Shown in pieces: positions 1 to 64,000 of a stretch of DNA of 64,000 bases. A model generated the notes under the pieces. It made no database searches, was not told the DNA's origin, and worked only from the letters and a program-made list of their open reading frames with translations. Each line of letters begins with the position of its first letter. Position 1 is the first letter of the stretch. Position numbers and translations under genes: made by a program. The DNA is from Balanoglossus misakiensis. Lineage: Eukaryota > Animalia > Hemichordata. Where the stretch lies: the NCBI GenBank assembly GCA_040954595.2, contig CM082582.2:5998303-6062302 (forward strand), written 5' to 3'.

Positions 1-285
1 TTCTTAGGAAGTCTTGGGAACGCGACTCGAAAGGTGAACACTATAATTTACGACTTCAGCACAAAAGCTCGAAAGAGTGAGAAGGGCGGAGGAAGGAGGG
101 GAGGGGGAGGCCGGGAGGGAGAGAGACTATTGAAAGCATGGACATTTTAAGTGGGTTAAGGAAAATCTACAGAATCAATTCCCACAGTATGACTTGCTGA
201 CAGTATGGAAACTCGCGTGCAGTCGAAATTTTGCCTGCCGAGCGATATTCGCATTTTTGACAAAATGTTTGTCTCCTTCTTTCAG

Positions 286-37700: not shown

Positions 37701-40700
37701 CGTTTCGCATCTTCTCTCACAACCAGCCAGTGTTACAGTAACGTAGATGGAATAGTGACCAAAATTTGAGGCACCTTTTGGACACCGTTTCACCAGTTGT
37801 GTTTCTTAGAATTGCATGTACCGTGTGACACATGGCATAAACCACTCGTCTAAATCTGCCCTAAACTACTTTAAAAATGAATCGACTGATACTTACAGTG
37901 CGAGGATAGCAAACAAGAAAATTGTTACAAAGGTACAGGACATGCAGTTTTGTTCATATTATCCATTTCTTGTCACCACCAGCTGCACGGGACAGATGCT
38001 TCGGCGGAACCTTTAAGAGGAGGACCTGGAACATCGACAACTCCGTTGACTGGAGCTACGCTGTCGGGCCGTCGGTCCTGCCCGACATGACCGAGTTCAC
38101 CATCTGCTTCTGGGTAAAGATCCCCCAGACGGAGACCAACTACTGGAGCACCTTCTTCAGCTACTTCGCCCGCGGCGACTGGTTCGGCAGCATCGTGCTG
38201 ATGTACCCGCAGAACGTGCGCATGTACGTGAAGAACTACTGGGGCGTGACGTCCGGCGTCCCGGTGAACGACGGCAGATGGCAGCGGCTGTGCTGGACCT
38301 GGTCTTCGGAAGGAGGAGCCTACAAGTTGTACAACAAGGGCTCCGTCATCTACTCGGGATCGGGATTGGCTGCCGGGCAGACCATCAAAGGGGGCGGCTC
38401 GATGGTCATTGGTCAAAAGCAAAGCACCATCGGGGGAGGCTTCCAAAAAGTGTACTCGCTCAATGCGAGGATCTTGAACTTCAACATGTGGAGCACTGTC
38501 CTCGATAGAGCTACGATTGCAGTATGTATACAATTTAATGTCTTTTTTTAGACATCGGCGTTGTATTACTGCCATAAAATTTTAGAATACATTCCATAGT
38601 GTTTTTGCATAGATAAGCCTATCATACATGTATGTGTATCCAGGTGCTTCCAGAAAGCTATACTGTCATAACGTCAAGCCCGAAAGTACTGTATACATGT
38701 ACTTAATCAGCCCTTTTAAACTGTCAAGTACAGTGTTTTAGCGTCGCCATTTTGTTTAAAGAAAGTGACTTTCTTTTAGTGGTTATCATGCATTTCCGGA
38801 ATCGAATAGCCACAATACTGACTGTGGTGTCTTGTTGCAGTGTTTGTCCGTACGACTCTAACATTTTTAAGTCTAACATTTCGTTTTTTGTTTGTTTATT
38901 TCTTGTCTTGAAGGATGATCGAAATATGTGCAGAGGAGACTGCGGAGACCTGATCTCGTGGCACGAGTTCACATACTACCATGTTGAAGGAATCGGAACA
39001 ACAAAGATTAGATGCAGTAAGTGGAAAATGTATTAACAGTATTGTTTTAGTGTGACAATATATAAAAAGAAAATCAGCACATCGAAATACACTACTTTCC
39101 GCGCATTGCGAGAGATCGCGAGACTTGATTCTTGACTGCTCCATAGACTGCAAATTTTGCTGAAATTTATATAAACATCTTTAAGAGTGAGGCATTATAA
39201 GAAGCATCAACTAGTCATTAATAGGATATCACTACATAGGAAATGGTTGACCTTATCGATTGTTGCCACTGCTAACAAAACTGAACATGTTATTTTACTA
39301 ACAGGAACAGATCCTGACGGAAATATAGACATCGAAGACCAAGATGAGGATGAGGTTACTACCATAGAACGTAAGTATAACCAGCGTCCGTAGAATAATA
39401 TGGCGCATAAATAATCCCTTAACGACCATTTATTTCTTTGTATTCATCTACTAACATATAAGAAAGCATTCGAATTTGTATTTTTTAAATTGCAAACTAC
39501 AGGAACGTAATAATCAGTTATCTGCTGTTTATGAATCCAAACCCACAATCTTCCACAAACGGTATCCACTTGACTTTGGAGAATACAGTTACATTTTATA
39601 ATTTCAAAATTTGTAGCTGGTGTAACGAGTGGACCAGTTACAGAACAACCCGAGGTCACTGAAGCACCAGAGGTCACTGAAGCACCAGAGGTCACAGAAG
39701 CACCAGAGGTCACTGAAGCACCAGAGGTCACAGAAGCACCAGAGGTCACTGAAGCTCCAGAGGTCACTGAAGCACCAGAGGTCACTGAAGCTCCAGAGGT
39801 CACAGAAGCACCAGAGGTCACAGAACAACCTGAGGTCACTGAAGCACCAGTTGTTACAGAAGGCCCGGTTGTCACAACGACAGGTATTAAATGACTGCAT
39901 TACGCCTCATCAAGTATTGCGATTCTTTGCAACAGATATGAAAATTTAACCACAGTTTCCAAGTAAGATCACGAAACGGTCGAAATAACATTATGTTCAT
40001 TTATGTTAATGTTTCTTCCTGTAGACTGTCCAGTTCCCGACAACCTACCAAACGCCGCAGTTGGCAGGACCGCCACACAAAGCTCAAAGAAAGGTGGCGG
40101 CAGAGCTGACAAGGCAGTGGACGGCAATGTTGACAGCGACATGTTGGGAGGTTCATCGTGTTCCCAGACCGAGACTGAAGAAAATCCATGGTGGATGGTT
40201 GATCTGGGAGAACCACTGGATGTCTACAAAGTCACCATCACCAACAGGCTGGATTGCTGCTGTGAGTTAGGAAAATACTATTCCTTTCCCTAACAATCTC
40301 TTTAAGGGGCATGTGTCATGCACGGCTGACCCTATGTTTCACATCAAAGAATTGAGCATGGACGAAATGTCTATCGTTTATATCTACAGAAATGCCCACA
40401 TCGGAAAATATGGGTGTGGCCGAAATCAAATAGTCATGGCGTAAGCAGCAATGACTGGATGACTTGTATTGTTAGATATGCCTGGTAATGTTGTGGACTG
40501 AGTGCTAAGATTCTTGCCGTTCTAGTTTTGACATAACTTTAAATAAATTTCTTTCCTCGCCAACCCCTTGCAGCCGAGAAACTACTCAACGCCGAAGTAC
40601 GCGTAGGAAACAGTGCTAACTTCGAAGAGAACGCTGTCTGTGGTCTAAGAATTTCGGAAGATGTCGCCAACCAGGAGACTATCGAAGTTATCTGCAGCTG

Positions 40701-43700
40701 TGGCGACCCTCTTATCGGACAGTATGTCAGCATTCAGTTGGCTGGTGTCACAGAATCCTTGACTCTGTGCGAGGTCGCTGTTGGAGGATTGCCTTTGCCA
40801 ACATTAGAACCTGCATTCACAACCGAAGGTAAGTTCAAACTGCAAATTGACATTGCTACAATGAATTGAGATTTGCATATGATAATGACGACTATTATTG
40901 TTCATTGATGGCGGACAGCATTTAGATGGTGCATGACTACATTTAGTCGATGCAAACACCCTTCAGCTGCACTGATGAGTAGTACATGTGCACTATTCGT
41001 AATGTCGTGAAAAGGTTAAAGGGTGACGATGGTCTTATGCGCATGTGCCAAACCAGAGACTTTGGTTTCAAAATTGTACACAGTCAATGCCATAAGGCAG
41101 TGTGCTGTATTAACAACAGACAAGATGGCGGCGACCATAGTCTGTGTCGAAGATCGGGAAAATACAGCGAATTAGGTGAAAAGAAGGGACAAAACTACAG
41201 TCTACTTATACGGTGCGCACGAAATGGAAGGAGGCGAAGGCAGTCGACGATTTGAATGCGTCGAATGCAAAATTCGCAGAAAAATTGCATTAGACGTATT
41301 TTTGTACACACGCACATGCGCATAAGACGATCACCGGCCTTGAATTTGCTTGAAGGTCACCTGACACACCTATATTGATCGTTCCCACAGATTGTCCTGT
41401 ACCCGAAGATCTCCCGAACGTTGCCGTTGGAAAGACTGCCACACAGAGTTCGAAGAGAGGCGGATCCAAGGCGAGCAAAGCTGTGGAAGGAAACGCAAAT
41501 AGTGACATGCTTGCAGGAAAGTCCTGTTCACAGACCAAGGCAGAGCTTCGCCCATGGTGGAAGGTGGATCTCGGAGAACCAATGAACGTGTACAAAATTT
41601 CCATCACAAACAGACAGGATTGTTGTGGTATGTGTGACAGTATTAAATATTTTTTTTATGTTTAGATTGTGGACAAATTATTAATTAGGAGATAAGAGTA
41701 TTAATGTTTTTTTTTTATTTTGGTGAAACGATTTCACAATGGGACCATTTAGCTGTTATCCCAGTTTCATACAAAATAACATACCATTCTTCAGCTGTGT
41801 AATAAACTTCATATTTGTGAATTTGACCATTCGACCAACCTTGAGCATCTATTTGCAATTTGTTGACAGTGGCAATTATTGATTATGTATAGTTGCTAAA
41901 ACAATGACGATATGTAAACCGTAGCATACGCTAACTAGGAAATGTTCTCTTGCCGCAGCTGAGAGGCTGATCAGCGCCGAAGTCCGCGTTGGAAACAGCG
42001 AAAACATCGAGGAGAATGCTGTGTGCGGCCACCGAATCTCCGAAGAGCATGCGCACCACGAAACCATTGAGGTTGTGTGTGCCTGCGGGGAGTCACTCGT
42101 CGGCCAGTACGTCAGTATTCAGATCACTAGCAGCGTACACGAGTCGCTCACGTTGTGTGAGGTAAGCATTGGCGGTCTCCCAATGCCAACCGAGGTGCCA
42201 GAAATCACGACCGAAGGTAAATTCTGTTTTGATGTCTAAACGTATACCTTGATTTTAGAGCCCATGGTGTGTATATAAGGAGTACAGTACAGTACAGTAC
42301 AGTACAGTACAGTACATCACGGTTAGGGTACTGTTCAGTACAGGTTTGATACTGTACGGTACGGATTCGATGTGGTACGATCCAGTACGGTTGGTAATGT
42401 ACAAGCAATAGGCTACAGCAGGAAGTTTGCTGCTTTGTAAACTACATGTACCTCTCCTTCCTCCTATCAGCATGCCCAGTGCCAGAGGACCTCCCCAACG
42501 CCGCGGTCGGCATGTCCGCCACGCAGAGTTCCCAGAAGGGTGGTGGCAGAGCCGACAAAGCCGTCGACGGTGACACCAACAGCGACATGTTGGCGGGAAA
42601 ATCCTGTTCGCAGACGACCAGCGAAGAAGAACCCTGGTGGATGGTCGACCTGGGAGAATCGCAGAACATCTACAAAGTGACCATCACCAACCGACAGGAT
42701 TGCTGCGGTGAGTTTCACGTAGGGCCTACACCTAACGCAATGGTGCAATATAGTGCAAAATATTGTGTAAAATTATGTTCTGTAGCACTTTAAGAGAGAA
42801 AGACAGAGAATTGCTGATGAAGGCAGAACGTCATCCATGATAGAAGGTTGATCGTGTGGAGAACCACACGACATATACAAAGTTGCAAGAACTGCCAGTC
42901 GTGTGTATCCGTCATTGCACATTGTTGAACTTGCTATAAGAACCTAGATTCCGCATGATGGGGTAGATTTTCTGACTGAGAATGCTAATGAATGTGTACA
43001 CAAACTTTACGGTAAATTGAGAGAAGGTCTTGGAAGGTTGATAAGCTGCTATCAGTGTAGTGGAACATTCATTCACCAGTCTCAGACAGTAATACTGTAC
43101 TCCCGTCAACTGATGGCTAGTCGCTGGGGCATTTAATGATATCATTAGCAGTTTACCTAACAGGCAATGTTTCTTTCAATAGCGGACGAGCTCCTGAATG
43201 CGGAAGTTCGAGTCGGCGACAGTGAAAACCTCGAAGAAAACGCCGTCTGCGGCGTTAGAATTTCCGAGAGGAATGTCAACAAGGAAACCATCGACGTCAT
43301 CTGTGACTGTGGCAATCCACTCATGGGACGATTTGTCAGCATTCAGTTGGTGGGTGTGACCGGATCATTGACGCTTTGTGAAGTCAGTGTTGGAGGTCTA
43401 CCGCTGCCAACGTTGGCTCCCGAAATAACAACACCTGGTAAGCGCATACATATTGTTCTTATCTTAGACCCTTGGGAGAGGGTCTTTGGTTTCTTATACA
43501 AGTAGATGTGATGTAAATAACGTATCAACTATAAATATACAAACCAAAACACTGTTCACTGACGTTTTATTTTGGAGCTGCTCTATGTGAATATTTGGCA
43601 CTCTGCCATGCGCGATGCCTGTCTTGTCACTTTTTGTCGTCTGCTTCGTGTTTAGGCCTAATGCTCGATCCCGGGCCACCTCGTGTTTACATTCATCCGG

Positions 43701-46700
43701 CGATGCGAGTTTGCTTCAGTTCGCGATTTCTTTTTCTGACGCTGTTTCGTTAAGAAAATGACACTGATGTGCCACAAAATCATTATTTGATATAATAAAA
43801 TAGCAATGACCCCCCGTCACATACGCTTGTGCTATATGACCAAACGTTTGGTATATTTCTGTCAACAGATTGTCCCGTACCCGAAGATCTCCCGAACGTT
43901 GCCGTTGGTAAGACTGCCACACAGAGTTCGAAGAGAGGCGGATCCAAGGCGAGCAAAGCTGTGGAAGGAAACGCAAATAGTGACATGCTTGCAGGAAAGT
44001 CCTGTTCACAGACCAAGGCAGAGCTTCACCCATGGTGGAAGGTGGATCTCGGAGAATCACAGAACGTTTACAAAGTCACCATCACTAACAGACAGGATTG
44101 CTGTGGTAAATGTTTGACCCAAGTTTTTTAACTGTAGTATCCGCTTCGAAAATCTATGCCTTAAACTTTTTTCACGTTTTGCTCAAGGCGACTTTAGATT
44201 ATTTTCTCTTAAAAGCGAGAGTAAAAAATAGGGACCACCGCGTAAAATTTTGTACATGAGAGCCAAATTTGTCTCAAATTGGAAAATAAAAATGGCCGCC
44301 AATCTGTGTGTTAACTCTATGGAGAAGATTTAAAGTTAGTGGTTTTTATGAAACCAAGAAGGTGAACACCCATTTTACATCTTCGCTTTCACGATGACAT
44401 CTCTCATACTAGAATATAAGCAAACATGTTCAATGTTTGAGAGTGTCTGAGGCGCGTAATATCTTAATCTTCTGGGTATTCGTAGTTTTACGTTGCACCA
44501 TTTGGATTGAAGTAAATGTGGTAATTGTACTAAAGTAGTGAGAAATGCCTTATTGACAACACTTTCGTTATTTATTTCTTCCGCCCAGCTGAAAGGCTCC
44601 TTAATGCCGAGGTTCGAGTTGGCGACAGTGAAAACTTTGAAGAGAACGCTGTGTGTGGACACAAAATCACTGAACACCACGTGCATCGCGAGACGATCGA
44701 AGTGACCTGCGCATGCGGGGAACCATTGGCTGGACAGTACGTCAGTATCCAGCTCGTGGGCGGCACTTTTGAAGCTCTTACTCTCTGCGAAGTCGACGTT
44801 GGAGCTCTTCCAATAGAAACCGCTGTTACAACTGAAGGTATTGCTGTTATTTTTTGCAGTAGTTTGAAATTGTTTTGACAAAATATGCATAATGTCCAAA
44901 AGGTTCAAAATTTATACATCTGCAAAATTGTCAATGTTAAGTGTAAAGGTATTTAACCAAAAACCAAAACACGACCAATAGCGTTTTATGCACGCCGTTG
45001 CCGATGGTCACTATGACTACACGAATGTCACCTGTGTTTCAATTGCAGTGTGTGTTGTACCTGAGGGTCTTTCAAATATGGCCGTCGGCAAAGAAGCGAG
45101 TCAGAGCTCCACTAAAGGGAAGCACGCGGCGTCCAGGTCTGTTGATGGCGACAAGGACAGCAACCTCAAAGGACAGTCGTGCAGCAAGACTGAAGAGGAA
45201 GACAGTCCGTGGTGGAAGGTTGACTTGGGTTCCAGCCAGGATGTCTACCAGGTCACAATTACCAACAGACAAGACTGCTGTGGTAAGTTTCCCTGCTTTC
45301 CATGGGGAAAACGGCGAGTCTAGTCCGGCATTGGGTTTTAGCCGGCCGCGCGAGTCTATGGGCCTACGACGTACGCGTTCACTCCACACGCGCTATAATA
45401 TAAATTGGTACAAATTTTGTTGAAATTTAATTTATTTAGAGAATAATTAGGCCCATAGACTTGGGACAAGTCTACAAATTCCCCAATATTGGAGGCTTGT
45501 ATTTCGGGACCCAATGGGCATTTTAATACAATTTCTCAGTACACTGGTCCACCCATAACGTTGCAATAATTCAGTTGTGTTATGTGTGAGGTTGACCTAA
45601 TTATTAACTTTTGGATGCTCCTTTCCAGTCGAATGATTTGTTGATTTTTCATTCTTCGTGTTTTCCTCCTAGCTGACAAGCTCCTGAACGCACAGGTCCG
45701 CGTCGGCGACAGCGAGGACATCGGAGAAAACGCGGCGTGTGGCGTCAAGATCAGCCAACACCACGTTGAGCAGGAAACGATCGAGGTCATCTGCGCATGC
45801 GGAGAAGCCCTCCAGGGAAGATACGTCAGCGTGCAGTTGGCCGGGGAGACGGAATCGCTCACTCTCTGCGAAGTAGAAGTTCTCGGCGGCAGTAGTACAG
45901 TTCCTACTGAGTGGACGACATCTTTCTTCACTGAAATCACGCCGACCCTGGAACCGCAGACCACAACTGAAGAACGTACGTTTGTTTCTGTTGTATTCAG
46001 AAATTGAGCGGCCATTTTCCACATGAGCCAACCCCACAAAACATCATATGAACAAAGAAACAACATGCAAAGACATATTAATCAAAACAGTACAACTTTG
46101 ACAGCTATCTGATCTGTGATTAGAGAAAAACGCACAGCAACTTCAGATCCAGAATAATTAAATGAATCAGTCTGTCACCTACTTTTTACATCAAGCAGAC
46201 TTGACACGACAACCAAAATCTCACATTGCCATTGATGATTTGCAAAGAAATCGTCTGCGTAAACAGTTCATTTATTAGTCAAGTCAAGTGGTCATATATG
46301 CTACACATGTGAAGATCCCGGTGTTAATTTAGTTTTATTTCGTGTTACAGCATGCATTCTGCCGGATGGTTTGGAAAATGTCATCACGTCAGAAATGAGC
46401 GTGGAACAGAGTTCAACCAAGAAGGCAGCCAAAGCTGAAAAGGCCATCGATGGTAATAAAGACAGCAACTTCAGGACGGGAAGATCCTGCAGCATGACCA
46501 ACAAAGAGTTTGAACCTTGGTTCAAATTGGATCTCGGCGAAGAGCGCGACATCTACAAAGTGACCCTCACAAACCGCATGGATTGTTGTAGTAAGTGCAC
46601 AGTTTGTCTGACCTGAGACAATTATTCAGTGTTTAGACTATGTTAGAAAGGTGGCGAGGAGAGGGGAGAGTAGTCATAAAGCTTTCGGGCGGCTACTGTA

Positions 46701-47813
46701 TCATGGATAGCTGAGAATTGAATGTGGCTGGGTACAGTTGTACTCAAGCTTAAGTTCGTTGTTTGTTGGTTGGTGGAAACAAAACAGATGCGTCCAGTGA
46801 CCACTACACGTATTTGCCTATTGTATGTAGAGCCGAATACTTATGGCCTTGACATTTCATTATTTGCAGTGTTCAGACTCAAGAATGCCGAGGTGCGTGT
46901 CGGAAACAGCCCCAACCCCCGGGAAAATCCCCTGTGCGGCGAGAGACCCCTCAAGGGCAGAACCGTCAAGAAGGAAACGGTGGACGTCGTCTGCGGCTGC
47001 GAGGCGCCGGTCACCGGGCGCTACATCAGCGTCCAGCTCTTCAACAGGACGCAGTTCTTGACCATCTGCGAGATCGAAGCCTTCGCGCTGCCCCCGGATG
47101 CGTGCCACCTGCCCGATCTGGTCAAGTTCCCGGCGGTAGAGGCGTCGCAGAGCTCCACCAAGGGCGGCAAGGGCGCGGAGAAGGCCGTCGACGGCGACAG
47201 GAACAGCGACTTCGCCGGTAAATCGTGCACCCTGACTGCGAGCGAGCAGTCTCCGTGGTGGAAGATGGACCTCGGTGAAAGCAAACAGATCTTCAAAGTG
47301 ACGATTACAAACAGAATGGACTGCTGCTGTAAGTATAATCGCCATAGTATCCACATTCTGTCCGTGCCTGGTTCAAGTTCAACCATGAAATATGACGTCA
47401 TCGTGCTTTTCTTCAATACTGATAATCAAACGCTTTTTTTCTTATTTGGACCAATGAAAGTTGTCTCTGTAATAATATGAGTTAATAATACCTAGATTTG
47501 AAGTAAAACTGTCGCAATGCAATGACAGACTTCAATTTTCAGTTTATATTATTGAAACTATAAAATTTGCTATTTCCCCCATTTTTCAGCTTGGAGACTT
47601 GAAAATGCCGAAGTTCGAATCGGAGACAATGCAGATTTCGGTCAGAACGCCCTCTGTGGCGCCCCGCTCGATCGAGACATTGTGAACCAGGAAACCATCG
47701 ACGTGATCTGTGACTGCCAGAACCCCGTCGGTGGTCGATATGTCTCCGTACAACTCCGTGACCTCACTCAAGTACTGACGCTGTGCGAAGTCGAAGTCTT
47801 TGGTGTTGAATAA
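4875..47813 (+). CDS. Giant secreted multi-lectin (about 7,150 aa, 70 coding exons): signal peptide - LamG/ConA-like - 26x pentraxin - acidic/PEVTEA stalk - 7x F-type lectin (fucolectin)
   Basis: Manual GT-AG splicing gives one continuous frame from ATG 4875 to TAA 47811-47813. Exon lengths sum to 21,459 nt, divisible by 3. There is only one signal peptide, no internal stop in the spliced frame and no transmembrane segment. Confidence 0.85.
6351..6986 (+). CDS. Exon 2: LamG-like / concanavalin A-like jelly-roll domain
   Basis: 'PVAFWPLD..LQDTSGNGNHG...YIEFPN...ITMSMYIYP...W.FVSASYD..TG.AKLW...QVYDRELT..E' matches the Laminin_G_3 pattern. Boundaries ttcag| and |gtatgt. Confidence 0.85.
7442..39016 (+). 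CDS. Array of 26 pentraxin modules, each a large exon plus a 103-121 nt exon
   Basis: Large/small exon pairs: 7442-7992/8426-8540; 8809-9350/9660-9774; 9976-10520/10774-10888; 11130-11668/11945-12056; 12174-12712/12887-13001; 13174-13718/13833-13947; 14112-14650/14949-15063; 15328-15866/16174-16285; 16563-17095/17429-17543; 17817-18364/18567-18681; 18927-19471/19796-19910; 20075-20613/20899-21010; 21340-21878/22254-22368; 22637-23175/23422-23536; 24006-24544/24783-24897; 25255-25796/26273-26384; 26658-27196/27571-27682; 27884-28416/28624-28744; 29144-29685/29984-30104; 30331-30866/31236-31347; 31532-32073/32391-32505; 32766-33283/33614-33728; 34128-34663/34848-34959; 35125-35468+35859-36053/36222-36333; 36600-37138/37479-37590; 37983-38521/38914-39016. 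Modules carry FT.CxW, the pentraxin signature WHHxCxTW, 'GGG.L.IGQ.Q...GG.F', 'FN.WS.VL' and 'CG..(V/I).W', with minor variants. Confidence 0.93.
19486..19649. mobile_element. Intronic hairpin MITE
   Basis: Left arm ttttcataagtccagcgccctca...gaacccagagcgaggccaatgg mirrors right arm ccattggcctcgctctgagttc...tgagggcgccagacttattaaaa. Confidence 0.75.
26420..26568. mobile_element. Intronic MITE-like inverted repeat (about 40-bp arms, AT-rich spacer)
   Basis: atatgagtagtatacgtgactatttgggcactcattatata ... tatataatgagtgcccaaatagccacgtatactactaatat. Confidence 0.75.
28833..29010. mobile_element. Intronic MITE-like element (28-bp imperfect inverted termini)
   Basis: gaaaacgaggccagtggatcacagagta ... 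tactctgtgacctactggcctcgttttc. Confidence 0.65.
32583..32701. mobile_element. Short intronic MITE (16-bp perfect inverted termini)
   Basis: gactctctcacagccc ... gggctgtgagagagtc. Confidence 0.65.
34740..34769 (+). repeat. (TTG)n microsatellite
   Basis: About 10 consecutive ttg units in an intron. Confidence 0.9.
35650..35712 (+). repeat. 31-bp tandem duplication inside the extra intron of pentraxin module 24
   Basis: aggattacttacatgggtaggc(c/a)tatactat occurs twice in tandem. Confidence 0.85.
39305..39883 (+). CDS. Stalk exons 39305-39370 (acidic, TDPDGNIDIEDQDEDEVTTIE) and 39617-39883 (PEVTEA repeats)
   Basis: Both are phase 1-1 exons with canonical splice sites, in frame with the pentraxin and F-lectin exons. 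Confidence 0.85.
39649..39846 (+). repeat. Coding minisatellite, 11 x 18 bp (CCAGAGGTCACWGAAGCW = PEVTEA)
   Basis: Tandem units counted directly, with degenerate flanking units PVTEQ and PVVTEG. Confidence 0.95.
40025..47813 (+). CDS. Seven F-type lectin (fucolectin/FTP) domains at the C-terminus of the giant lectin
   Basis: Exons 40025-40261/40574-40828; 41391-41627/41959-42216; 42471-42707/43183-43437; 43869-44105/44589-44837; 45049-45282/45673-45975; 46351-46590/46870-47328/47590-47813. Motifs 'N.AVGK.A.QSS', 'A.KAVDG', 'CS.T..E..PWW.VDLG', 'V.ITNR.DCC..RL.NAEVRVG' and 'G.YVSIQ...LTLCEV.V' define F-type lectin domains. Confidence 0.93.
42281..42315 (+). repeat. (CAGTA)n microsatellite
   Basis: Seven agtac units. 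Confidence 0.9.
42820..42884 (+). pseudogene. Degenerate fragment of an F-type lectin exon inside an intron
   Basis: aaggcagaacgtcatccatgatagaaggttgatcgtgtggagaaccacacgacatatacaaagtt aligns to coding aaggcagagcttcacccatggtggaaggtggatctcggagaa...tacaaagtc, with the WW codons changed to TGA TAG. Confidence 0.65.
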
Positions 47814-53483: not shown

Positions 53484-56400
53484 CTACTTCAGGAAAACTT
53501 TTCCTTTGACCAACTTGACCCTCTCCATGATGGCGTCCTCTGCGATTGTGTCCAGGTAGGCTTTGTTATTGGCCTTCAGAAACTGGGGTTTGTATCGGCC
53601 TTTAGTGTCTTTGTCGTACCAGTGAATGTTAACGACAGCGCCCTCAATTTTACGAATCTTCCCTATCCAGTAGGCGTCGTCATCCAGCCCTTCGCCATTG
53701 ACAGCAACAATATCACCCGGCTGAAAGTTCCTCTCCTGAAAAATAAAATTAAATCAAATCTATTTTGAAGGAACTCAAAATACCAGAATTTTCTCAAGAC
53801 TTGCTTTCAGCAAAACTGTTATTAATATCGCTTTTTTTCAGGAATTTACGTGTACACTTACATAAGCTACAATGCTGCCCAACTTTATGACCCACCCCCT
53901 AATAAAATCCTACTGCAAAAGAGAGAGCATAATTACTAACCTGTCTAAGTTTCTCCACTTCCTCATCATCCAAGATATCATCTTCACTGTCAAACTTTCT
54001 TTTCCTCTTGGTCAGTTTCTCAGGTTTTTTACGCGTATCGTTACTTGCTTGTTCCTCAATCCTCTCATCATTTGCAGCGGATGGAACCGTGTTTCTATCG
54101 ACTCTTTCAAGTCTCACAGATACTGCGGTTAACCCCTTTTTCTTTCGCCTCTCAGATACGGGCTTTGTCGTCACTACTGAAGGTTCTATGCTTTTCCGTT
54201 TTTTCTGTTTCATTTCATCGTGTCCATCAACAACCTCTGCTCCTCTGACGGAACGGTCGCCCGTGTCCCCGTCAGTGCTTTTTCGTTTCAGTCTCACAAT
54301 TTTCTCGCTGTTTCCTGCGGGCTTTGCAGACGTTCTACTACCTTCCCTGCTTTTGCTTTCTTCCGGTTTTCCCTTCGACTTGACAGTCTTGGCGTCCGTC
54401 GCATTTCCGACGGCGGTTTCCGATCTCCTCCTGTCACTGTGCAGTGTCTCCTTCGCATTGGCAGTACGTACTTTCTGTTTTTCGGAACCGTCTCTCGCAG
54501 CGTGCTGTTTCTCTCTGCTGGCGCTGCCTTTGTGACTTTGCGCCCTATCTCTCTCAGAACTGCCCTTAGCACTCTGCGCTCGATCACCGCTACCTTTCAC
54601 TCCCTGAACTTTCTCTTTCTCGCCACTGCTCTTCACTGTCCTCGCTTTCTCCCTATCAACCCTCCCCTTCGCACTGTGCGCCGTTCCCCGTTCACCGCCG
54701 CTCGACACACTCTGCGATTTCACAGTTCGCAGTTTCTCCTTCTCGGCAGTGCTCTTGACGCCTTCCGTTCTCTTGACAGCGTCTTCCTTCACGGACTTCT
54801 TCGTTCTTCCGATGGCTCCGTTTGCTTCCGCGGATTTCTCCGGGTGCCCAAGTTTGCTCCATTCTCTGAACTGATCGTTCACTTGCGCAATTTCCTGCTG
54901 GGCACCAGCTTTGCCGTCCTCCAACTGGAGACCCGATTCCTCTTTCTTATTCGGCACTTCTGTGTTTCAAACAAACATCAACAAACTGTGTTAATGTTAA
55001 TTAATATGGATCCGAGGTCAGAAGAAAAAAAAGATCAAGCTTCGAAAATGAAACATACAGACAGACATTCATACATACATACAGACAGACGCAACCGATC
55101 CCATAAGGTCCCATGGTACATACCAATGGGACCTAAAAATGAACGGAAAGGAAAACAAACCCTAACCATAATCAGACCGGTGCAAAAGTCTAAGTTGCAA
55201 AAGTCAAACCCAAGTAATGTTTTCGTTAGGTGTGGTACTTAGATAAATATTACCAGGGTTCCCCTTTATGTATCAATGTATTTATATAACTAGGTGGCAA
55301 AACGTTGCTACGGTCCCCAGATCATTTTCCAGTGTTCCTTAACTTTCCCAGCTCCCTCTATAAACTGGTTAAACTTAGCAAAACACCTGCCAATGCTATG
55401 TTTGGTTACACCTTCTCACCTTCTTGCATTAAAATGCCTCCGTGCCCACTAGCCTTTATTGCTGACTTCATCTTGTGGCTGGCATAGTCGATGGGCAGTT
55501 TATTCTCCCTGTTCGTCATATTCAGCAAGGCAGGGAAAGTTTCAATCAAGCAGACGGTAACATCGACGGAGTCGAACTTCATTGCAGCGTGTAACGGCGT
55601 GTCCTTTTTGAAGTAAAGATGTATGGAAACATTTAAGTACAGAAGTACATCAAGTGAAAGCGTCCCAGCAGAGCTACCATGACGTGACAGAAAATGGCAA
55701 AGTAGGATTCAAATATTGATTAGACGGGCAATGAGATATTAAGACACAGGCACAAAATATACAAATTTTGCCTGAATATGTGGATTGCAAGCCATTCAGA
55801 TATGAAGTGACTGACTACAGCACTTTCGAAAAGAGTGAACAGTCCTGTTCCACACCCGATCACGTAAAATCAGAAAGACCGGCCTCGTATCTTACCCCTT
55901 GACTGTTTGTGTGGATAATACTCAGTTCTGAGACACCGTACTCTGACCTGACACAGTTCAACACTTCTTTCAGATAGTCCATGTCATTGTTCATGGCGGC
56001 GATACTCATTTCCTCAATCTGGTGAAGATTAGATCCAAACATACAAAAAAAAAATGTGAGGACCAAGGCACACACCTTCATGTTTTGAACTTATCTGGCA
56101 GACATAGATCTCATTGCTGAAAGTATTCTTACACACTCGGTTACGAGAATTACACACATGGGTAGAAATGTTCTCTTGATAATTTTTAAGCATTGTAGTG
56201 TAGGGCAATTTACATAAGAATACAATAGTTGTGATAATCCATTTCTGCTATTTCCCAAAATTTAAATATTTTCTCCAGCTTGTTTGGCATATGTTGCAAT
56301 TATGACAAGTAATCAGCTCTATTTGGCATTTTTTCTGTGAGAATTGACAGATTTGAGCGCAATCTCTCTCACCTTGTCGAATATCGTGACAGCTTTGGTA

Positions 56401-59400
56401 AGTTTTAGTTTGATATCAAACGGGAATACGTCACACTCGCCCCGTTTTTGTCGGAACAGTTGAGCGTGCTGCCAGGCCTTGCCGTGCTCTCCGCTTCCTC
56501 CGCATATAAATACTGACAAAACCAAGGATGAGGATCCTTTGAATTCATCCAGATTTATGGCTTCTGTGGCTGAGAAAGGAATAATGGGAAAGGATTTGGG
56601 TAAATACAATAAATAACTGAGATCATATACATCTGTATTCCCCCCCTAAAAACACAACCCAACAACAACACAACAACAACCAAATCCTAGATCAAATATA
56701 ATTATTATTACAAGGCCCAGGTGTAAAGAAAAACACAATACAGTACAGCACAGCACAGCACAGTACAGTACAGTACAGTACAGTACAGTACAGTACAGTA
56801 CAGTACAGTTCATTACAGTACAGTTCATTACAGTACAGTACAGTACAGTGCAAACAACCAACAAAGTACATAGAACAATTTCAAATCCCTGTAAGGAACA
56901 TAAAGAGTACTCTGGCAAATAGACCAAAAACTGATGGCATTTTGAAAATAATAAATCTATTCTGTACAAAGTACAGAGAGAGTCACAATTATGACTAGAC
57001 CTGTTTTTTCCTGAGACCAAATCTTTCAACGCTGTCAATGTTTCGTCCAGAGCCAATTTTTCTTTTGAATTGGCATATACACTGTTTCTCTCAGAGCTTG
57101 GGAAGCGAATTCACGTTCTGTGCTACAGCATATGATGACCACAGCAAAGACTTACCTCCTGTTGGTGTGATAAACCTGTGTGGATTCATGCTGTCCTGCA
57201 CTTTCCACAGAACAGTGGCACTGTCGTGGTGCGTCGTACTCCAGGCCAGCAAACTGCCAGACTCCAGCTGGTAACCCCCAAAGTCAAATTTCCACGTTAT
57301 GAAGGACGAGTCGTCCGGCGTCTGACCACTCAGCCTGGATAAGTACGTCTGAAATGGATTAGGAGGCAGAGATCAGCATCTATACGATTAGTGTTGCATC
57401 AAGGATACTGTATTATGGGGGGTTTCACAGTTTACCAGGGCATGTACTGAATCACTGATGAGAGATTTAACCGCACGAGGTGAATGCCCTTTCGCATATG
57501 AAGTCATACATATCACCCCCTCCCCCCTCCAGTCTTCACAAAGAAATAACAAGGGACAAAATCTTTCTCACCATGGCATTCTTGACTAGAATTCATTTTG
57601 TTGTGCAAAAGCCATATGAAACGAAATCAGCCAAGTATTACTAAAATATAGGGATTGTGTCCATTTAATGGAATTTATATTCAACTTACCACATTGTCAT
57701 CTTTTTCTTCATTCCTGACAACATTCTCTGCTGCATATATTCCATGCTCCCACCCATCGATCACTTCATTGTCATTGCTAACTCTGATGTATTTGTTTTC
57801 TCCCGACGTGTACTTCAGATGAAACTCTGTGTTATCCCTTTCCTTCTTTGTCAGGGTAAAAGACTTGCCTTTGGGTTTTTCCTTCAAGACAAAAAAAAAT
57901 CCAGAATACTGACTGTTTCTATCTATGTAGAAAAAAATGTTCTCACAGTTAAATTTTTTCCTTTGCACTATTTCTAAAAAGACTATGTAGGACTTGATGA
58001 TTAGTTGTGAATCATCATGATTAATTCCAGAGTTCAGTGAGATCCAAAGTCTCTGCTTTAGAAAAATCAGTCAAGACTTGCAACTCATGGGAAAAAAGCA
58101 GAGCACATAAGGAATAAACAAGTATGAATGGAAATCTGGTGGATTAATATCAACTGATGTATCACTCACACAACTGAATGCATTTTATATTGTGAATGAA
58201 CCACTGATAAATATATAAAGAACATGATGTGGACTTTTGATCTTGAATTTTCTCATCTAAATTATCAAGAAATGGTCAAGGATGATGCCAGTCACATACA
58301 TCTAATCCTGTTTTACTGTTTTTTTAATTGACCTCGCAAAGATAACTTCCGTTTGCTTTTCTCTCCAGACCTACCCATTTCTCTATATCTTCTCCGGGAC
58401 GAAGTCGCGCCCAGATCTCCAGCGGGCAGGGGAAATCCTTTGTCGCTGATTTGGGTTGCTGGAAAAGTCTTGTCCTCGACCAGGCATTTTTCCCTTCACC
58501 ACCTCTCAGAAATGCAGACAACACCAAAGACGACGCCCCGTTTAACTTGTGCAAGCTGAATGGTGTCCCATCTGTTCAATAAAAGACAAAAGGAGGCTGT
58601 ATAAAAAGGTGTGCCACCCGTTTATTACTTGGCTAGTTCACATTCATACATACAGCTGCTATCGGAGTTTAACAATATATGTCTGTATTCCCATCAAGAC
58701 TATTTGAATGGACTAATCTACATTTGAAAGTAAAATCATGAAAATGTGGATCCTAGTGGAGCTTTAATACATGATTGCATAACTATACCTCCAGTGGGAA
58801 AGATATATCTGTTGGTATTGGCCCCATCGTAGATTTTCCATGTCACCGACGCGTTGTCACTGAAAGTTCCACTGATCGCACGCAATGCTCCAAAATCCAT
58901 TTTGAACTTGCCGAAGTCAAACTTCCAAGATATGGAGGCACTTTCTTCAGCACTGCTGGTACTATTCCGGGACAAGAATGCCTTGACAGGTAAAAAATAA
59001 ATAAAAGAAATGTTAAAATTATATCTGCTTAAAGCTTCTATTTGAAAAATAAATAAAAGAAATGTTAAAATTATATCTGCTTAAAGCTTCTATTTGAATC
59101 TTCAAAGTGTACGTACCAACTATGCCTAACAGTGCTAAAATGACCCCCACTTTGCAAGTTGAACCATTCCTTGTATAGAACAAATCTTATCAAATATCTT
59201 AAGATGTGCACTAATAAATTTTATACAGCAAAACATGTTATACCTCTGTGGAACAGAACAAAGCTTTCAGGTTACTGAAGGAATTTCAAAAAGTGAACAA
59301 AATAAGTCTTACAACAGTTAGTCCATTGATGATGGAGTGACAATGATGAACTACTTAAGTCAAACTCAAATCAGCTTACCTCTTCACTGGTTTCACTTCT

Positions 59401-60046
59401 TTGAATGTTTTCTTCCAGGAAAGTTCCGTTTTCCCAGCCTTTGAGGACTTCTTTATCATTTGACACCCTGACATACTGGTCAGTTACGCAAGAGTACTTG
59501 AGATGGAACATTTTCTTCTTCTGTTCATTTTGAGTCAGATGGAAACACTTCCCAACATGCTGTAATCAGTCATTATCATAAATGGTATTAGCTATTTTAT
59601 AAATATTAATAGGAATTAGGATACTTAATTTACGAAGACAGTTATACCATAAAAGATTCAAATTCACATAAAGCTATGATTTAGAGTCAACAAATTTGTA
59701 TGTTGGATTCATGTAACTTATAAGAGTATGGACCTCCCCACCCAAAAGTGCTCTAATCCCAACATCTTTGGACAAAACACCAACTCCTCTCACAAAGCCT
59801 GTGGCACCCCATTTTCATGACCGGCCATCCTTCTAAAGTGCAGACGACCGTCCTTCCTTGAACGTCACAAACAAGCTCATTTGCTAATTTATGTAGACCA
59901 TGACCTAATTCAAAATGAATGTGACTTGTCTGATGTCACCAATAGTAATTTAGTACTTGTGAACTTTAGTATGTTTTATCTGCTGTACACTAACAGCAAT
60001 ATCCAACATCAACTGTACTCACCGTGTAATTACTTTTCTTGCCCAT
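53484..60046 (-). CDS. 917-aa protein: PAW - PAW - ankyrin repeats - K/S/E/R-rich disordered region - SH3/Tudor-like beta-barrel; 11 coding exons
   Basis: Minus-strand exons 60046-60023, 59559-59380, 58981-58789, 58571-58375, 57881-57690, 57348-57156, 56569-56373, 56018-55896, 55603-55420, 54959-53941 and 53735-53484 splice in frame (2,754 nt). The PAW pattern 'FHLKY...D.YVRVSND.EV..GWE.G...EN', 'YLSR...ISWKFDFG' and 'GG.G..AWQHAQLFRQ' occurs twice. Ankyrin 'NSQG|DTPLHAAM...LL...NRENKLPIDYA'. C-terminal 'FQPGDIVAV.....YWIGKI......VNIHWY'. Confidence 0.82.
55015..55140 (+). mobile_element. Probable Helentron/HINE-like 3' end fragment (tetranucleotide microsatellite plus stem-loop)
   Basis: An (acag/acat)n run is followed by the hairpin aggtcccatggta-ca-taccaatgggacct and an A-tract. 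Confidence 0.45.
56738..56850 (+). repeat. (CAGTA/CAGCA)n microsatellite
   Basis: Long imperfect pentamer run inside an intron. Confidence 0.9.
58993..59096 (+). repeat. Perfect 52-bp tandem duplication next to a splice acceptor of the PAW gene
   Basis: aaaaataaataaaagaaatgttaaaattatatctgcttaaagcttctatttg occurs twice. Confidence 0.92.
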
Positions 60047-60249
60047 TATTTTAGTCTTCTTGCCTGGTGTTGATGACAATCTGTAAAAGCAGCAGATGTA
60101 TTTACAGCAAATTAATCGTCTTTACCATAGGCGAGCGTCAGAGCATCTTTCTCTAGGGTCTATGGTCAGAGTCAATTGTTAAATCACAGGAACTCAACTG
60201 GAGAACTCACAGAACCTTATTTTTAGAATACAACAGGCGTCAGCAATCT

Positions 60250-60454
60250 GGATCTGGTTCTCTTAGTGGACACGACTATACTCCACGGGCGATAATATGG
60301 TTTTTTAGGGTTAGGGTTAGGAGGGTTAGGGTTAGGGTTAAATTCACCCTCACATTGCCACCCCTAACCCTCCTAACCCTAACCCTAACTCACCCTCATT
60401 GCCATGGTATCGTTGCCATGGGATATAGTCGTGTCCACTAAGAGAACCAGATCC
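60250..60454. mobile_element. 205-bp MITE with 31-bp perfect TIRs, 8-bp TSD (AGCAATCT) and internal inverted TTAGGG/CCCTAA repeats
   Basis: TSD at 60242-60249 and 60455-60462. TIR ggatctggttctcttagtggacacgactata / tatagtcgtgtccactaagagaaccagatcc. (TTAGGG)n at about 60305-60340 and (CCCTAA)n at about 60361-60388. Confidence 0.93.
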
Positions 60455-60899
60455 AGCAATCTTTACTACACCTTTACGTAATAAGCCCGTATTATAAACG
60501 AGTTTATCGACCTTTACCTCCATGCTCAGAATACAGTGCCGGTTGACTTCATCTAAGTACTTATACTATACTATACAAGATAATTTCATCACTTCTAATT
60601 TATGTAACTTTAGAAACGTATATTTTAATAGGCTGTGAAAAATACACTGTAAGTTTACGCATACGTAGTCGGCCAAGATATGTGCGCACTCACGTTGGCC
60701 GACACACACTCCGTTGACAGATCAGGAATATCCCTCGCAAGGGAAGCATGTGTGGGAGAAAGCAGGCGAATTTTAAATTCCTTGCAATACATACCTTACA
60801 CTAGTGCCTGTACGCAAACTGATTGGGCCAGTTAGGACGAGCGTCACATTTGTTCAGGCTTTCTCTGTGAGAAAACCACAGAGACATGCATTTGCTACA

Positions 60900-61210
60900 C
60901 ACAGAATAAAATGGCGGGACTTCCGCTGGGGATAGAGCATGCTGGGAAAATATGTTCTTTGTTTTTCTCCCCACTGAAAAGAATCTGTTTTGGGATGGAT
61001 TGTCAAAATTGGGAGCACGATTCAAATAGAGGAATATTCTTCTTTGGTTTGTGTGGGCACGGTCGCCCCACACACGACCGTGGGACCGTGGGAATTCGTG
61101 GGTTCCGAGTTACCGAAACAGGCCACCTTGGCCGCGTGAGGGCGTATCAATGACGTCATTATAAGTACAAAGTGCATGATCCGATGGGACCAAAATTCAA
61201 AATGGCGGCA
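60900..61210. promoter_or_regulatory. GC-richer putative promoter zone upstream of the PAW gene, with AAAATGGCGG (YY1-like) motifs
   Basis: aaaatggcgg at about 60908 and 61200. A minus-strand donor (gtgagt) near 60692 suggests a non-coding first exon. The second motif may belong to the transposon. Confidence 0.35.
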
Positions 61211-61288
61211 GTGCATGTGTGATCGATCGTGATCACTTCTGCTTGCAACTCCGTACTGGCATTATTTTGACAAAAAGACTTCCTGAAA

Positions 61289-61462
61289 ATGGTTAATTGG
61301 TTTTGTGCGGCTCCGGAGTGTACTATCAGCTTGCGCAATAAAAGAAACGCCGCAAAATACCCAGGATTGGCAGACGTGACATTTCATGCATTCCCAACTG
61401 AGAAACATCGCTGACTTCGCCAGCAGTGGATTTCCGTGTTACGTCGAAAGGATGCCCACTAG
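61289..61462 (+). pseudogene. THAP zinc-finger N-terminus of a DNA transposase, truncated with an internal stop
   Basis: MVNWFCAAPEC...VTFHAFPTEKHR*LRQQWISVLRRKD matches the THAP pattern C-x4-C...FH.FP...R..W...RR. The CxxHF tail and the DDE domain are missing. Confidence 0.75.
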
Positions 61463-61853
61463 TCGCTTGGTGATTTTTGGAATATCAATACTTTGTGTGT
61501 GTTTGCGGTGATTTTTTGTTTGTCTTTATTCATAATCTCAATATTGTGTGCGTGCTTGCCTTGAGCGTGTTTCTGGTAGTGAGGCGAGTTTCGAATTTGA
61601 GACTGATCTCATGGTTTCTGGTAGCGTCGCTACGTGTTCCCTACACATACGCGCTCACACTCGCTGACATTTACTCCACACACAAAAAAGCAAAGCATTT
61701 ATAATAGTTACATTTTTAGACATGTCATGAATTTTATTCAGCCAATAAAAATGTAACTGTGGCTGTACATGTGGTGTCTTTTTGATTCATATCTTAATGC
61801 TTTCACAAGAGTTTCACACATCACTCTACTAGTTTTAGAAGTACCATGAATGA

Positions 61854-62109
61854 TGACTCTCACTTTTTGTTTCACTTTTGACATTAAAGAGGGTGTGACT
61901 GCAGAGAAGTGTGAAATACAAAATATGTTGTAAGGGAATATTGTATGTTAGTTGGTCAGTTGGTTAGTGAACTGGGGAACTTGGTTTCGGTTAGTAGGTT
62001 AGTTGGTTAATGCAAACATTCCTTGATTCCCTTACAACATATTTTGTATTTGATCTCTCTACAGTCACAACCTCTTTGACGTCATAAGTGAAACAAAAAG
62101 TGAGAGTCA
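61854..62109. mobile_element. Hairpin MITE-like inverted repeat (about 85-bp arms)
   Basis: tgactctcactttttgtttcactt...aaatacaaaatatgttgtaagggaat mirrors attcccttacaacatattttgtattt...aagtgaaacaaaaagtgagagtca. Confidence 0.8.
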
Positions 62110-62181
62110 CTTGTCTTGTAAAATAAAAGTAAACAATACTAAGCTATACCCTGGTTATCCTTTTCACTATCAACAACAGTT

Positions 62182-63850
62182 CTATGTACAACTGACAACA
62201 ATGTTAGTTACAATAAAATCCTCATAAAATGTAGAAAGTTTAGCTTCAGTTGTTTTCCCAAACAATTCATCGAAATATATCCTCTCTATTGAAATGGCTT
62301 TTCTTGTGAATAACACAAAATCACACCATTGCAGTTTACAAGTAGCAAGTTGCATTTGTATTTGGGTATACCATTTTGATGTCCTCCTCAAACACACTTT
62401 GCCATCTACATCCAAAAATACATGGTATTTGGGAACTCTAGGCTTGATATATCACATGGGAATATATTGCGGTGTTTGCTGGAACATTTGATTTCACACA
62501 TTTAAAGCTGGCAATGATAGTGATTTTACTAGCTATATTGGAGAATCTGTATCAGAAGCTGATATTGATTTTATGTCATCACTGACAGCTGATCAAAGAG
62601 ATTATGAGGATTGGTATTTGTATAGACAAGGGAGCGTTACTGCCAGTATTGCACATGATATCCTTCACATGAAAGAAACTCGGGATTTGAATGACTACAT
62701 AGTCCAAAAAATTATGTCTGGCAGTCACAGGACAATACCTTCAACCCACATTGATTGTGGTATTAAACATGAACCTGTTGCTAAGCATTTATATCATGAG
62801 CAATACAAAAAGTTGCACCGGAAAGTGAAATTTCAAGATGTTGGCTTAGTCATCAGTTCTGACAAGCCATATCTTAGTTCAAGTCCTGATGGGAGGGTAT
62901 CATGGGAGGACATCAAATGGCACCTGGATAATAGTTGGACACAGTTGGTCTTGGTGTGTCAGGCTCAGACTTATCCTTTCTAATGTCAAGCTCATCTATT
63001 TCCATAGGAGTGGACTCTCTGCGGGGTTTATCCCACTTACAGGAACATCAGTACCAACTTGAATATTTCTGTCTTTGTGGCGTCTATCGAAGTCGTTGAT
63101 GCTAAACAACAATGCAACACAATGTTTGCATGTTCCATGCTCACTGTAAAAAAAATTCAGATACATGGTAAATGTTAACGCATGATTGCAGCTTTTTTGT
63201 TTATGCCTCTCTGCAGTGACTGTCAAATGAAAACTGAGGTATTCAAACCTAAAACGTCAATGCATCAAATGGAGAATGAAATCATATTAACTATTTTCAA
63301 ATATTATCTAATTTTGCAAATCCTGATTTACAGTCCTCAACAGCACTTTAAATTAGTCAACAGATACTGTTGGAAAAACATAGACAATTCTGTCAGACTC
63401 TACTGACAGTTTTCTCATCCAAACACACAGATAAAGCAAACCGAACTAAAAAACAAATGTCAAAATACATGTATAACCATGGTTATTTCAACCCACCATT
63501 TCTATGTACCTAGTCACACTGGTAGAACTAAAAGCCACGGTGGATTAAAATGATAAAATTTATATAAAAAAATACTTACGCAACACAATTACAGCCTCAG
63601 AAGAGAATGGAGGTCGCTGACCCACTCGGTGATCGTCGCCGGATCAGGCAAAGTGATGTTTTGGCTGGGTCGCGATTGTCTGCTACCGTCCGCCTTTTTT
63701 TGCTCGAAATTTCCTGGTCACCAGGCTCTAGTGGCCGAACGTCCAGTTCTATAGCTAACTCCACTACCTGAATTAGTCTATCTTTCCAGGTATTACAACA
63801 AGTTATACCTCTTTCCGACATAAACTTTCTCAGGTCAGGAACTTATGTAA
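62182..63850 (-). pseudogene. YqaJ-like (lambda exonuclease family) / SWIM protein pseudogene with frameshifts, one intron and an inverted middle segment
   Basis: Minus strand: 'VPDLRKFMSERGIT' (about 63840), 'GCNCVA|EHGTCKHCVALLF' across intron 63579-63144, 'GTDVP/CKWDKP', then 'CEIKC' (about 62495) and 'YTQIQMQL...CDFV...ERIYFD'. The motifs 'T.DQ...W...R.G.VTAS', 'GIKHE..A...Y' and 'YLSSSPDG' lie on the + strand at 62501-62900. Confidence 0.8.
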
Positions 63851-64000
63851 ACATGACCTCATTCAGGACCGGAAGTGCAGTGATCCCAACTCGCACGCCC
63901 TCAGGCGACAAGAGTCTATGAACTTTCTACTTTATTGAGAACTCGGAACCCGCGAATTGATATGGCATTCCTCACACGCACAAGCCCCCGTGTTCACACT

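Follow-up and report, generated by a model that had tools for sequence, protein, structure and literature searches.

A conserved acorn-worm gene joins two NGLY1-type PAW domains to ankyrin repeats, a disordered linker and an SH3-like barrel

We analyzed a stretch of 64,000 nucleotides from the acorn worm Balanoglossus misakiensis (GenBank assembly GCA_040954595.2, contig CM082582.2, positions 5,998,303 to 6,062,302 of the forward strand), hereafter the window. Its minus strand carries, at 60046-53484, a gene of 11 coding exons with AG acceptors and GT donors at in-frame positions. Joined by their coordinates, the exons give 2754 nucleotides (nt) coding for 917 amino acids (aa) with one terminal stop, in the domain order PAW, PAW, ankyrin, disordered basic region and SH3-like barrel. 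An in-frame stop lies 26 codons 5' of the ATG, and both alternative donors tried for exon 9 break the frame. The PAW domain, whose name includes 'other worm proteins', is usually the sugar-binding helper of the enzyme NGLY1 (PUB-transglutaminase-PAW); here it stands in one real, conserved acorn-worm gene with a non-catalytic architecture. The coding exons are:

60023..60046, minus strand: exon 1, 24 nt, 8 aa, start MGKKSN, all six residues shared by Ptychodera and Glandiceps
59380..59559, minus strand: exon 2, first third of the first PAW (PAW1), 180 nt, phase 0-0, Pfam PAW E-value 2.4e-13
58789..58981, minus strand: exon 3, middle of PAW1, 193 nt, phase 0-1, matched by Pfam PAW
58375..58571, minus strand: exon 4, end of PAW1, 197 nt, phase 1-0, WSRTR in place of WQHxQ
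57690..57881, minus strand: exon 5, first third of the second PAW (PAW2), 192 nt, Pfam PAW E-value 3.2e-12, Trp of the E-x-D-W patch changed to Asp with E and D kept
57156..57348, minus strand: exon 6, middle of PAW2, 193 nt, matched by Pfam PAW
56373..56569, minus strand: exon 7, end of PAW2 and start of the first ankyrin-like helix, 197 nt, WQHAQLFR intact, Pfam PAW E-value 2e-9
55896..56018, minus strand: exon 8, ankyrin-like helical repeat, helices in the orthologue model
55420..55603, minus strand: exon 9, ankyrin repeat with DTPLH and capping helix, Pfam Ank_5 E-value 1.5e-4, 82-84% identity in two orthologues
53941..54959, minus strand: exon 10, predicted disordered linker of about 340 aa rich in K, E, S and R, with a basic cluster and a conserved acidic helix at its end
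53484..53735, minus strand: exon 11, 83-aa SH3-like beta-barrel and stop, 82% and 77% identity in two orthologues

The Pfam PAW profile (PF04721) matches all six PAW exons in model order, three of them passing the curated cut-off of 31.4 bits alone (50.8, 47.2 and 38.0 bits; the other three score 17.2-28.4). The original prediction, made from the letters of the window, had described two PAW-like repeats with exons of 180/193/197 and 192/193/197 nt; the lengths are as it gave them, and the profile bears out the PAW identity with two copies above the curated cut-off. PAW1 and PAW2 share 42% identity over 179 aa. Orthologues score 200-245 bits against the same profile, in two stretches each. In the AlphaFold model of the Glandiceps orthologue both PAWs mostly reach a predicted local distance difference test score (pLDDT) of 75-95, and Foldseek aligns the modeled PAW with mouse PNGase 2G9G at an E-value of 4.9e-20, a root-mean-square deviation (rmsd) of 1.5 and 39% identity.

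Four NGLY1 proteins used as tblastn queries match only the PAW exons within the window (E < 0.5). Because these queries find PAW exons only and a stop lies in frame upstream, the gene has no PUB or catalytic core, as had been predicted, and no PNGase core precedes it. Pfam scans of the orthologues gave no Transglut_core or Rad4 domain, nor did they meet a PUB domain. A truncated NGLY1 was rejected on the upstream stop and the conserved start. The absence of a signal peptide likewise held: the 917-aa protein contains no hydrophobic signal or membrane segment (best 19-residue hydropathy 1.18), and a secreted lectin was rejected for lack of a signal peptide.

Searching 99 candidates among longer proteins with exon 11 found two, one of Ptychodera flava (82% identity) and one of Glandiceps talaboti (77%); each is a RefSeq model that contains PAW and has its parts in the same order. 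Saccoglossus kowalevskii has an orthologue with PAW-PAW-ankyrin-linker. Identity to Ptychodera and Glandiceps, respectively, is 75 and 68% in PAW1, 75 and 70% in PAW2, 84 and 82% in the ankyrin part, 21 and 22% in the linker, and 81 and 72% in the C-terminal 97 residues. Nine of the ten exon junctions are gap-free in both full-length orthologues, bar a one-residue gap near 5/6 in Ptychodera; the tenth (9/10) falls in the variable linker. The 60 residues encoded by exon 2 are precisely what is missing from Ptychodera isoform X2, an indication that exon borders are shared. That PAW2 and the ankyrin part belong to a single gene, as originally read, agrees with a junction that is unchanged across the three orthologue models compared. 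The orthologues are already in RefSeq, as uncharacterized or misnamed models. The name 'histone-lysine N-methyltransferase' given to the Ptychodera protein is unsupported: Pfam on both Ptychodera isoforms gives PAW and ankyrin only, with no SET or other methyltransferase domain, and a methyltransferase identity was rejected for want of SET.

The introns record where the PAW domains came from. Human NGLY1 has an intron before c.1612 (c.1611/1612, phase 0), according to the accessible text of PMC13082330, and another after c.1789 (c.1789/1790, phase 1), according to that of PMC8997433. When positions are counted back from the C-terminal end of pangolin and duck NGLY1, a procedure that puts the published human W535 in its correct position, the phase 0 intron comes immediately ahead of the V-Y-L motif and the phase 1 intron follows the Gly of G-D. 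The two introns inside each PAW of the window gene lie at the same codons and in the same phases. Because of this match the PAW exons appear to have been copied as genomic DNA, and on this reading of the gene structures the domains came from NGLY1 by genomic exon duplication. A retroposed origin was rejected, given the introns common to NGLY1. Glandiceps retains a separate full NGLY1. In a PAW tree, the PAW1 copies of four species form one clade (100/99), and the internal PAW duplication would therefore be older than their split; the window PAWs group with those of Ptychodera (supports 97/89 and 100/98).

The GDTPLHAA ankyrin repeat noticed originally is present, and its extent can be refined to exons 7-9, or about two to three repeats. 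Exon 9 matches Pfam Ank_5 with 22.5 bits, below the cut-off of 27, which the Saccoglossus orthologue passes with 29.3 bits. The Glandiceps AlphaFold model has helical ankyrin repeats at residues 387-492. The PAW2-ankyrin part aligns unbroken to the head of a KAP NTPase (31% identity over 302 aa, E 7e-30); within the window, a KAP protein query finds the PAW and ankyrin exons and nothing else, and the KAP P-loop domain (PF07693) is absent from the orthologues by Pfam. This hemichordate KAP NTPase family, headed by a degenerate PAW and ankyrin, has more than one paralogue in Ptychodera and Saccoglossus, and its members are annotated NKPD1-like (XP_070580805, XP_070579626, XP_077866181, XP_006817682, XP_077988428). 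The head is collinear with that of the window gene; however, the KAP proteins have a single, far more degenerate PAW without WQHxQ, and a P-loop NTPase with hydrophobic segments where the window gene has linker and barrel.

A PAW scan of 1.84 billion representatives gave 441 matches. Among the best 150 of these 441, on which our results rest, six have a best stretch running from PAW into ankyrin; all six are hemichordate, being two orthologues and four KAP-family NTPases. The PAWs of the PAW-ankyrin unit all lie on one side of a branch with support 88/91, below the tool's strong mark. Twenty of the best 150, picked for unusual length or position, were also scanned with Pfam. PAW proteins without the enzyme occur elsewhere, as tandem PAWs in abalone, krill and goby and as a CaaX-like family in sea star and acorn worm. 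They branch separately, so PAW has been released several times. The krill protein (partial) combines an autophagy-receptor-type zinc finger with two PAWs, both with WQHxQ, and is a candidate glycan-recognizing adaptor. The sea star and acorn-worm proteins, one clade (100/100), have a single PAW at the N-terminus, followed by a disordered tail that ends in a CaaX-like motif.

As an NGLY1-like reference for the sugar site we used the 67 proteins with a catalytic-core motif among 161 fetched. Conservation in this set reaches 75% or more in 36 columns, of which PAW contains 28, and the E, D and W of E-x-D-W and the W, Q and Q of WQHxQ are 97-100% conserved. These two patches are what we take, from the mouse structure, to be the mannose site. 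The accessible text of a docking study names human Lys530 and Asp534 among speculated glycan contacts (PMC11016977), and reviews, as far as their accessible text goes, state without more detail that PAW binds high-mannose glycans (PMC9102325, PMC12248763, PMC2866665, PMC8997433). In all four species PAW1 has a two-residue deletion in the E-x-D-W patch and has lost WQHxQ; it retains 14-20 of 24-26 NGLY1-conserved columns (18 of 26 in the window). PAW2 keeps WQHxQ in all four, so the contrast first drawn between AWQHAQLFRQ in PAW2 and the diverged AWSRTRLFQQ in PAW1 stands. The Trp of E-x-D-W is found in PAW2 of Glandiceps only; the position holds Asp in the window and Ser in Saccoglossus, and is Phe or deleted in Ptychodera. 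The window PAW2 retains 22 of 28 conserved columns, compared with an NGLY1 median of 94% and minimum of 72%.

Judged by these residues, the sugar-binding site is likely mostly worn away. Residual weak mannose binding by PAW2, probably differing among species, is possible. The glycan sensing proposed originally, with attention to the WQHxQ motif alone, is not established, with both patches of PAW1 broken and the Trp of the window PAW2 lost. Despite its loss of motifs, PAW1 is as conserved between species as PAW2, suggesting another use of its surface.

The linker (338 aa; K 14.5%, E 10.9%, S 10.9%, R 10.1%) fits the earlier description of about 340 K/S/E/R-rich residues, and its KKRK, RRKKK and KRKRK runs lie at residues 747, 765 and 812. 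These three basic runs are modestly above what composition gives (shuffle mean 0.86, p 0.04); the linkers of the other three species have no significant enrichment in such runs (p 0.11-0.69). A basic cluster precedes the barrel in all three barrel-bearing proteins. The Glandiceps model falls below pLDDT 50 over residues 494-755, with PAW and ankyrin confident and the barrel weak.

Neither exon 10 nor exon 11 has a significant Pfam family, the barrel matching nothing at E < 0.01. Searches by sequence found no barrel relative among 371 proteins of 45-147 aa; of 92 viral and 534 metagenome pattern matches not one was confirmed, and sequences of solved structures gave only noise. Foldseek gave no match at E 0.001 in the PDB or in viral models. 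In structure comparisons, Tudor, BAH, PWWP, ARF1, myosin SH3 and TraI relaxase barrels tie at Z 5-6.4, including the BAHCC1 Tudor (Z 6.4, rmsd 2.0, 57 residues aligned) and DNMT1 BAH1 (Z 5.9, rmsd 3.0, 70 aligned). The SH3-like fold of the Tudor/SH3-like barrel proposed at the outset is thus supported by fold searches, and Tudor is one of several tied families. By features, the Atlas returns unnamed eukaryote clusters at 0.91-0.93, whose recognition value falls short of the tool's bar, and a single named cluster nearby, DUF7869 (0.76; a lead only). By structure it gives ten rows (template modeling score 0.61-0.77 by query, over 79-96 residues): DUF7869 twice, DDE_1, Peptidase_C48 and a viral entry once each, and five with no such label.

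The closest predicted structures of the barrel are invertebrate DUF7869, DDE_1 and Ulp1-protease SH3-like domains (Atlas PF31078, PF30715), although the window barrel stands in a conserved host gene without transposase or protease. DDE_1 is established as transposon-borne, and we count DUF7869 and Ulp1 as transposon-borne as well. The look-alikes therefore provide a lead for capture, and on these models the barrel was likely recruited from a transposon-type protein. The SH3-like C-terminal barrels of integrases contact DNA; DNA or chromatin binding would therefore be the likelier role here. A role as a methyl-lysine reader is not established.

With moderate confidence, we favor the reading that the gene encodes a lineage-restricted, probably nuclear, non-catalytic scaffold with a partner-binding head, a flexible spacer and a chromatin-holding tail. 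The last three exons of NGLY1, introns included, would have been copied and joined to an ankyrin pair in a single event, and the resulting PAW-ankyrin unit would have founded both the window gene and the PAW-ankyrin-KAP NTPases. In the window gene PAW would then have been duplicated again, before the sampled acorn-worm families split, and the barrel, likely transposon-derived, added at the C-terminus. Nuclear import may proceed through the basic cluster before the barrel, the barrel and basic tail holding DNA or chromatin. The head of two PAWs and ankyrin would serve to bind partner proteins instead of sugar, with strong selection on it despite the decayed sugar site.

Several observations weigh against the scaffold. 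Glandiceps PAW2 retains 27 of 28 NGLY1-conserved columns, so sugar binding may persist there. The basic cluster is marginal when measured over the last 40 linker residues (p 0.02-0.16) in linkers that are 20-27% K+R, and the conserved N-terminal Gly-2 could point to membranes instead. The barrel alone is predicted with low confidence (mean pLDDT 57.8). In the Atlas comparison, which sets predicted models on both sides, five of the ten rows carry no transposon-type family and one more is viral. Both Saccoglossus models end without a barrel, one in a short hydrophobic tail and the other, older one fused to a succinate dehydrogenase subunit, on a 60-kb contig; the barrel may therefore be dispensable or missing from that assembly. 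The succinate dehydrogenase gene neighboring that locus has no match in the window. Finally, the orthologue sequences are gene predictions, and the window gene is itself read from sequence.

The combination put forward in the original prediction, a glycan sensor coupled to a chromatin reader, appears unlikely. PAW2 would recognize the high-mannose glycans of free oligosaccharides or of retro-translocated glycoproteins, with the barrel reading methylated histones; glycoprotein turnover would thereby be linked to transcription. The intact WQHxQLFR of PAW2 in all four species, the nearly complete Glandiceps PAW2 and short PAW2 end branches (0.11-0.27) speak for it, but the E-x-D-W Trp, present in 97% of the 67 NGLY1-like proteins, is replaced in the window, Saccoglossus and Ptychodera. 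Of the structures compared, BAH domains overlap the barrel over the greatest length (70-74 of its 83 residues), and BAHD1 has a comparable layout of low-complexity region, nuclear localization signal and C-terminal BAH reader, according to the accessible text of PMC4791424. A BAH cage, as described in the accessible text of PMC4791424 and PMC9910501, comprises a Tyr followed at a distance of 20-22 residues by Trp-x-Tyr/Phe. In the barrel, inspected by eye, Tyr-Trp is followed after 16-17 residues by Trp-Tyr-Asp, which would put Asp at the third cage position, and reader and non-reader barrels tie in Z. Were PAW2 still to bind high-mannose glycans, the protein would form a direct relay from glycans to chromatin through an enzyme-free cytosolic or nuclear lectin, which would report glycoprotein leakage or endoplasmic reticulum stress to DNA. 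It is improbable, and a long shot, that the lectin domain NGLY1 uses in endoplasmic-reticulum-associated degradation has become a mobile PAW-ankyrin sensing module employed twice, in membrane KAP NTPases and here with a domesticated transposon barrel.

We regard as quite unlikely a membrane-tethered cytosolic adaptor. In that reading the MGKKSN start would carry myristate, and the head of PAW and ankyrin would pair with the related head of a KAP NTPase, regulating that NTPase or acting as a decoy for it. The first six residues are identical in three species though they sit on a 24-nt exon, and the PAW-ankyrin-KAP NTPase family exists in the same three named species. However, myristoylated proteins usually have Ser or Thr at residue 6, which here is Asn; the older Saccoglossus model has a different start, and the basic cluster and barrel would be left unexplained. 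Very improbable is a chance join of two separate genes, a tandem-PAW gene ending near 56319 and an ankyrin-barrel gene downstream. Read-through of exon 7 would meet a stop at 56319, the Saccoglossus C-termini disagree, and the succinate dehydrogenase fusion demonstrates that chimeric models occur. Against this, all three orthologues have almost the same residues across the PAW2-ankyrin junction, as Ptychodera has across the linker-barrel junction; the same PAW-ankyrin linker recurs in an independent gene family, the KAP NTPases; the 354-nt intron 7 holds no AATAAA or ATTAAA; and the barrel is fused in two independent genomes. The profile match, the unbroken gene and the lack of an upstream PNGase core thus all agree with the original description of the architecture.

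The rest of the window holds features of other kinds. On the plus strand, the region 6263-47810 holds a long run of 23 pentraxin-like exons (one motif count) and, after that run, seven F5/8 or fucolectin-like motif exons at 40243-47310; together they are possibly one very large lectin gene ending near 47810. Exons at 261-1900 (plus strand) resemble O-methyltransferase by eye. At 61093-63958 lies a decayed DNA-transposon-like element. It carries a pair of inverted repeats of 19 nt, a minus-strand exon of SWIM-like type and a YqaJ nuclease (Pfam E 1e-7). The YqaJ stretch (62492-62980, plus strand) and the parts that appear to flank it (minus strand) are oppositely oriented, a sign of a possible internal inversion. 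At 60248-60456 and 61854-62109 there are two small hairpin elements whose inverted arms are long and neither of which is repeated elsewhere in the window; the former, just upstream of the gene, has telomere-like TTAGGG arms.

Compared with known systems, the window gene shares with NGLY1 (mouse PAW structures 2G9F, 2G9G and 2I74) the PAW fold and two intron positions per PAW. It differs in having no PUB or catalytic core, in its doubled, N-terminal PAW, in the loss of invariant motifs from PAW1 and partly from PAW2, and in the added ankyrin, linker and barrel. Stand-alone non-catalytic PAW proteins resemble it in a PAW freed from the enzyme and sometimes doubled, but they lie on separate tree branches, and those scanned have neither ankyrin nor barrel. 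BAHD1-type and Tudor/PWWP chromatin scaffolds likewise have a low-complexity region, a basic cluster and a C-terminal SH3-like barrel; the window barrel, however, matches no BAH, Tudor or PWWP profile, is about half the size of BAH and has what looks like an incomplete cage. Our literature search, with poor coverage of subscription papers, found no description of this architecture. Its parts are known, and PAW proteins without the enzyme have precedent; what seems not to have been described is how the parts are combined here, the PAW-ankyrin unit shared with the KAP NTPases, and the likely transposon barrel.

The range of the gene looks narrow, which limits its general impact. Within that range it would offer a clear, dated example of how exon shuffling gives rise to a new gene in a deuterostome lineage, with inherited introns that record its origin and a likely transposon contribution. 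PAW, usually described as the sugar-binding helper of NGLY1, has repeatedly been released from it and has stayed under selection after its conserved surface decayed. Selection of this kind implies a second use of the PAW fold. Because the four orthologues form a series from the intact Glandiceps PAW2 to the degenerate PAW1s, the residues needed for mannose binding would be directly testable.

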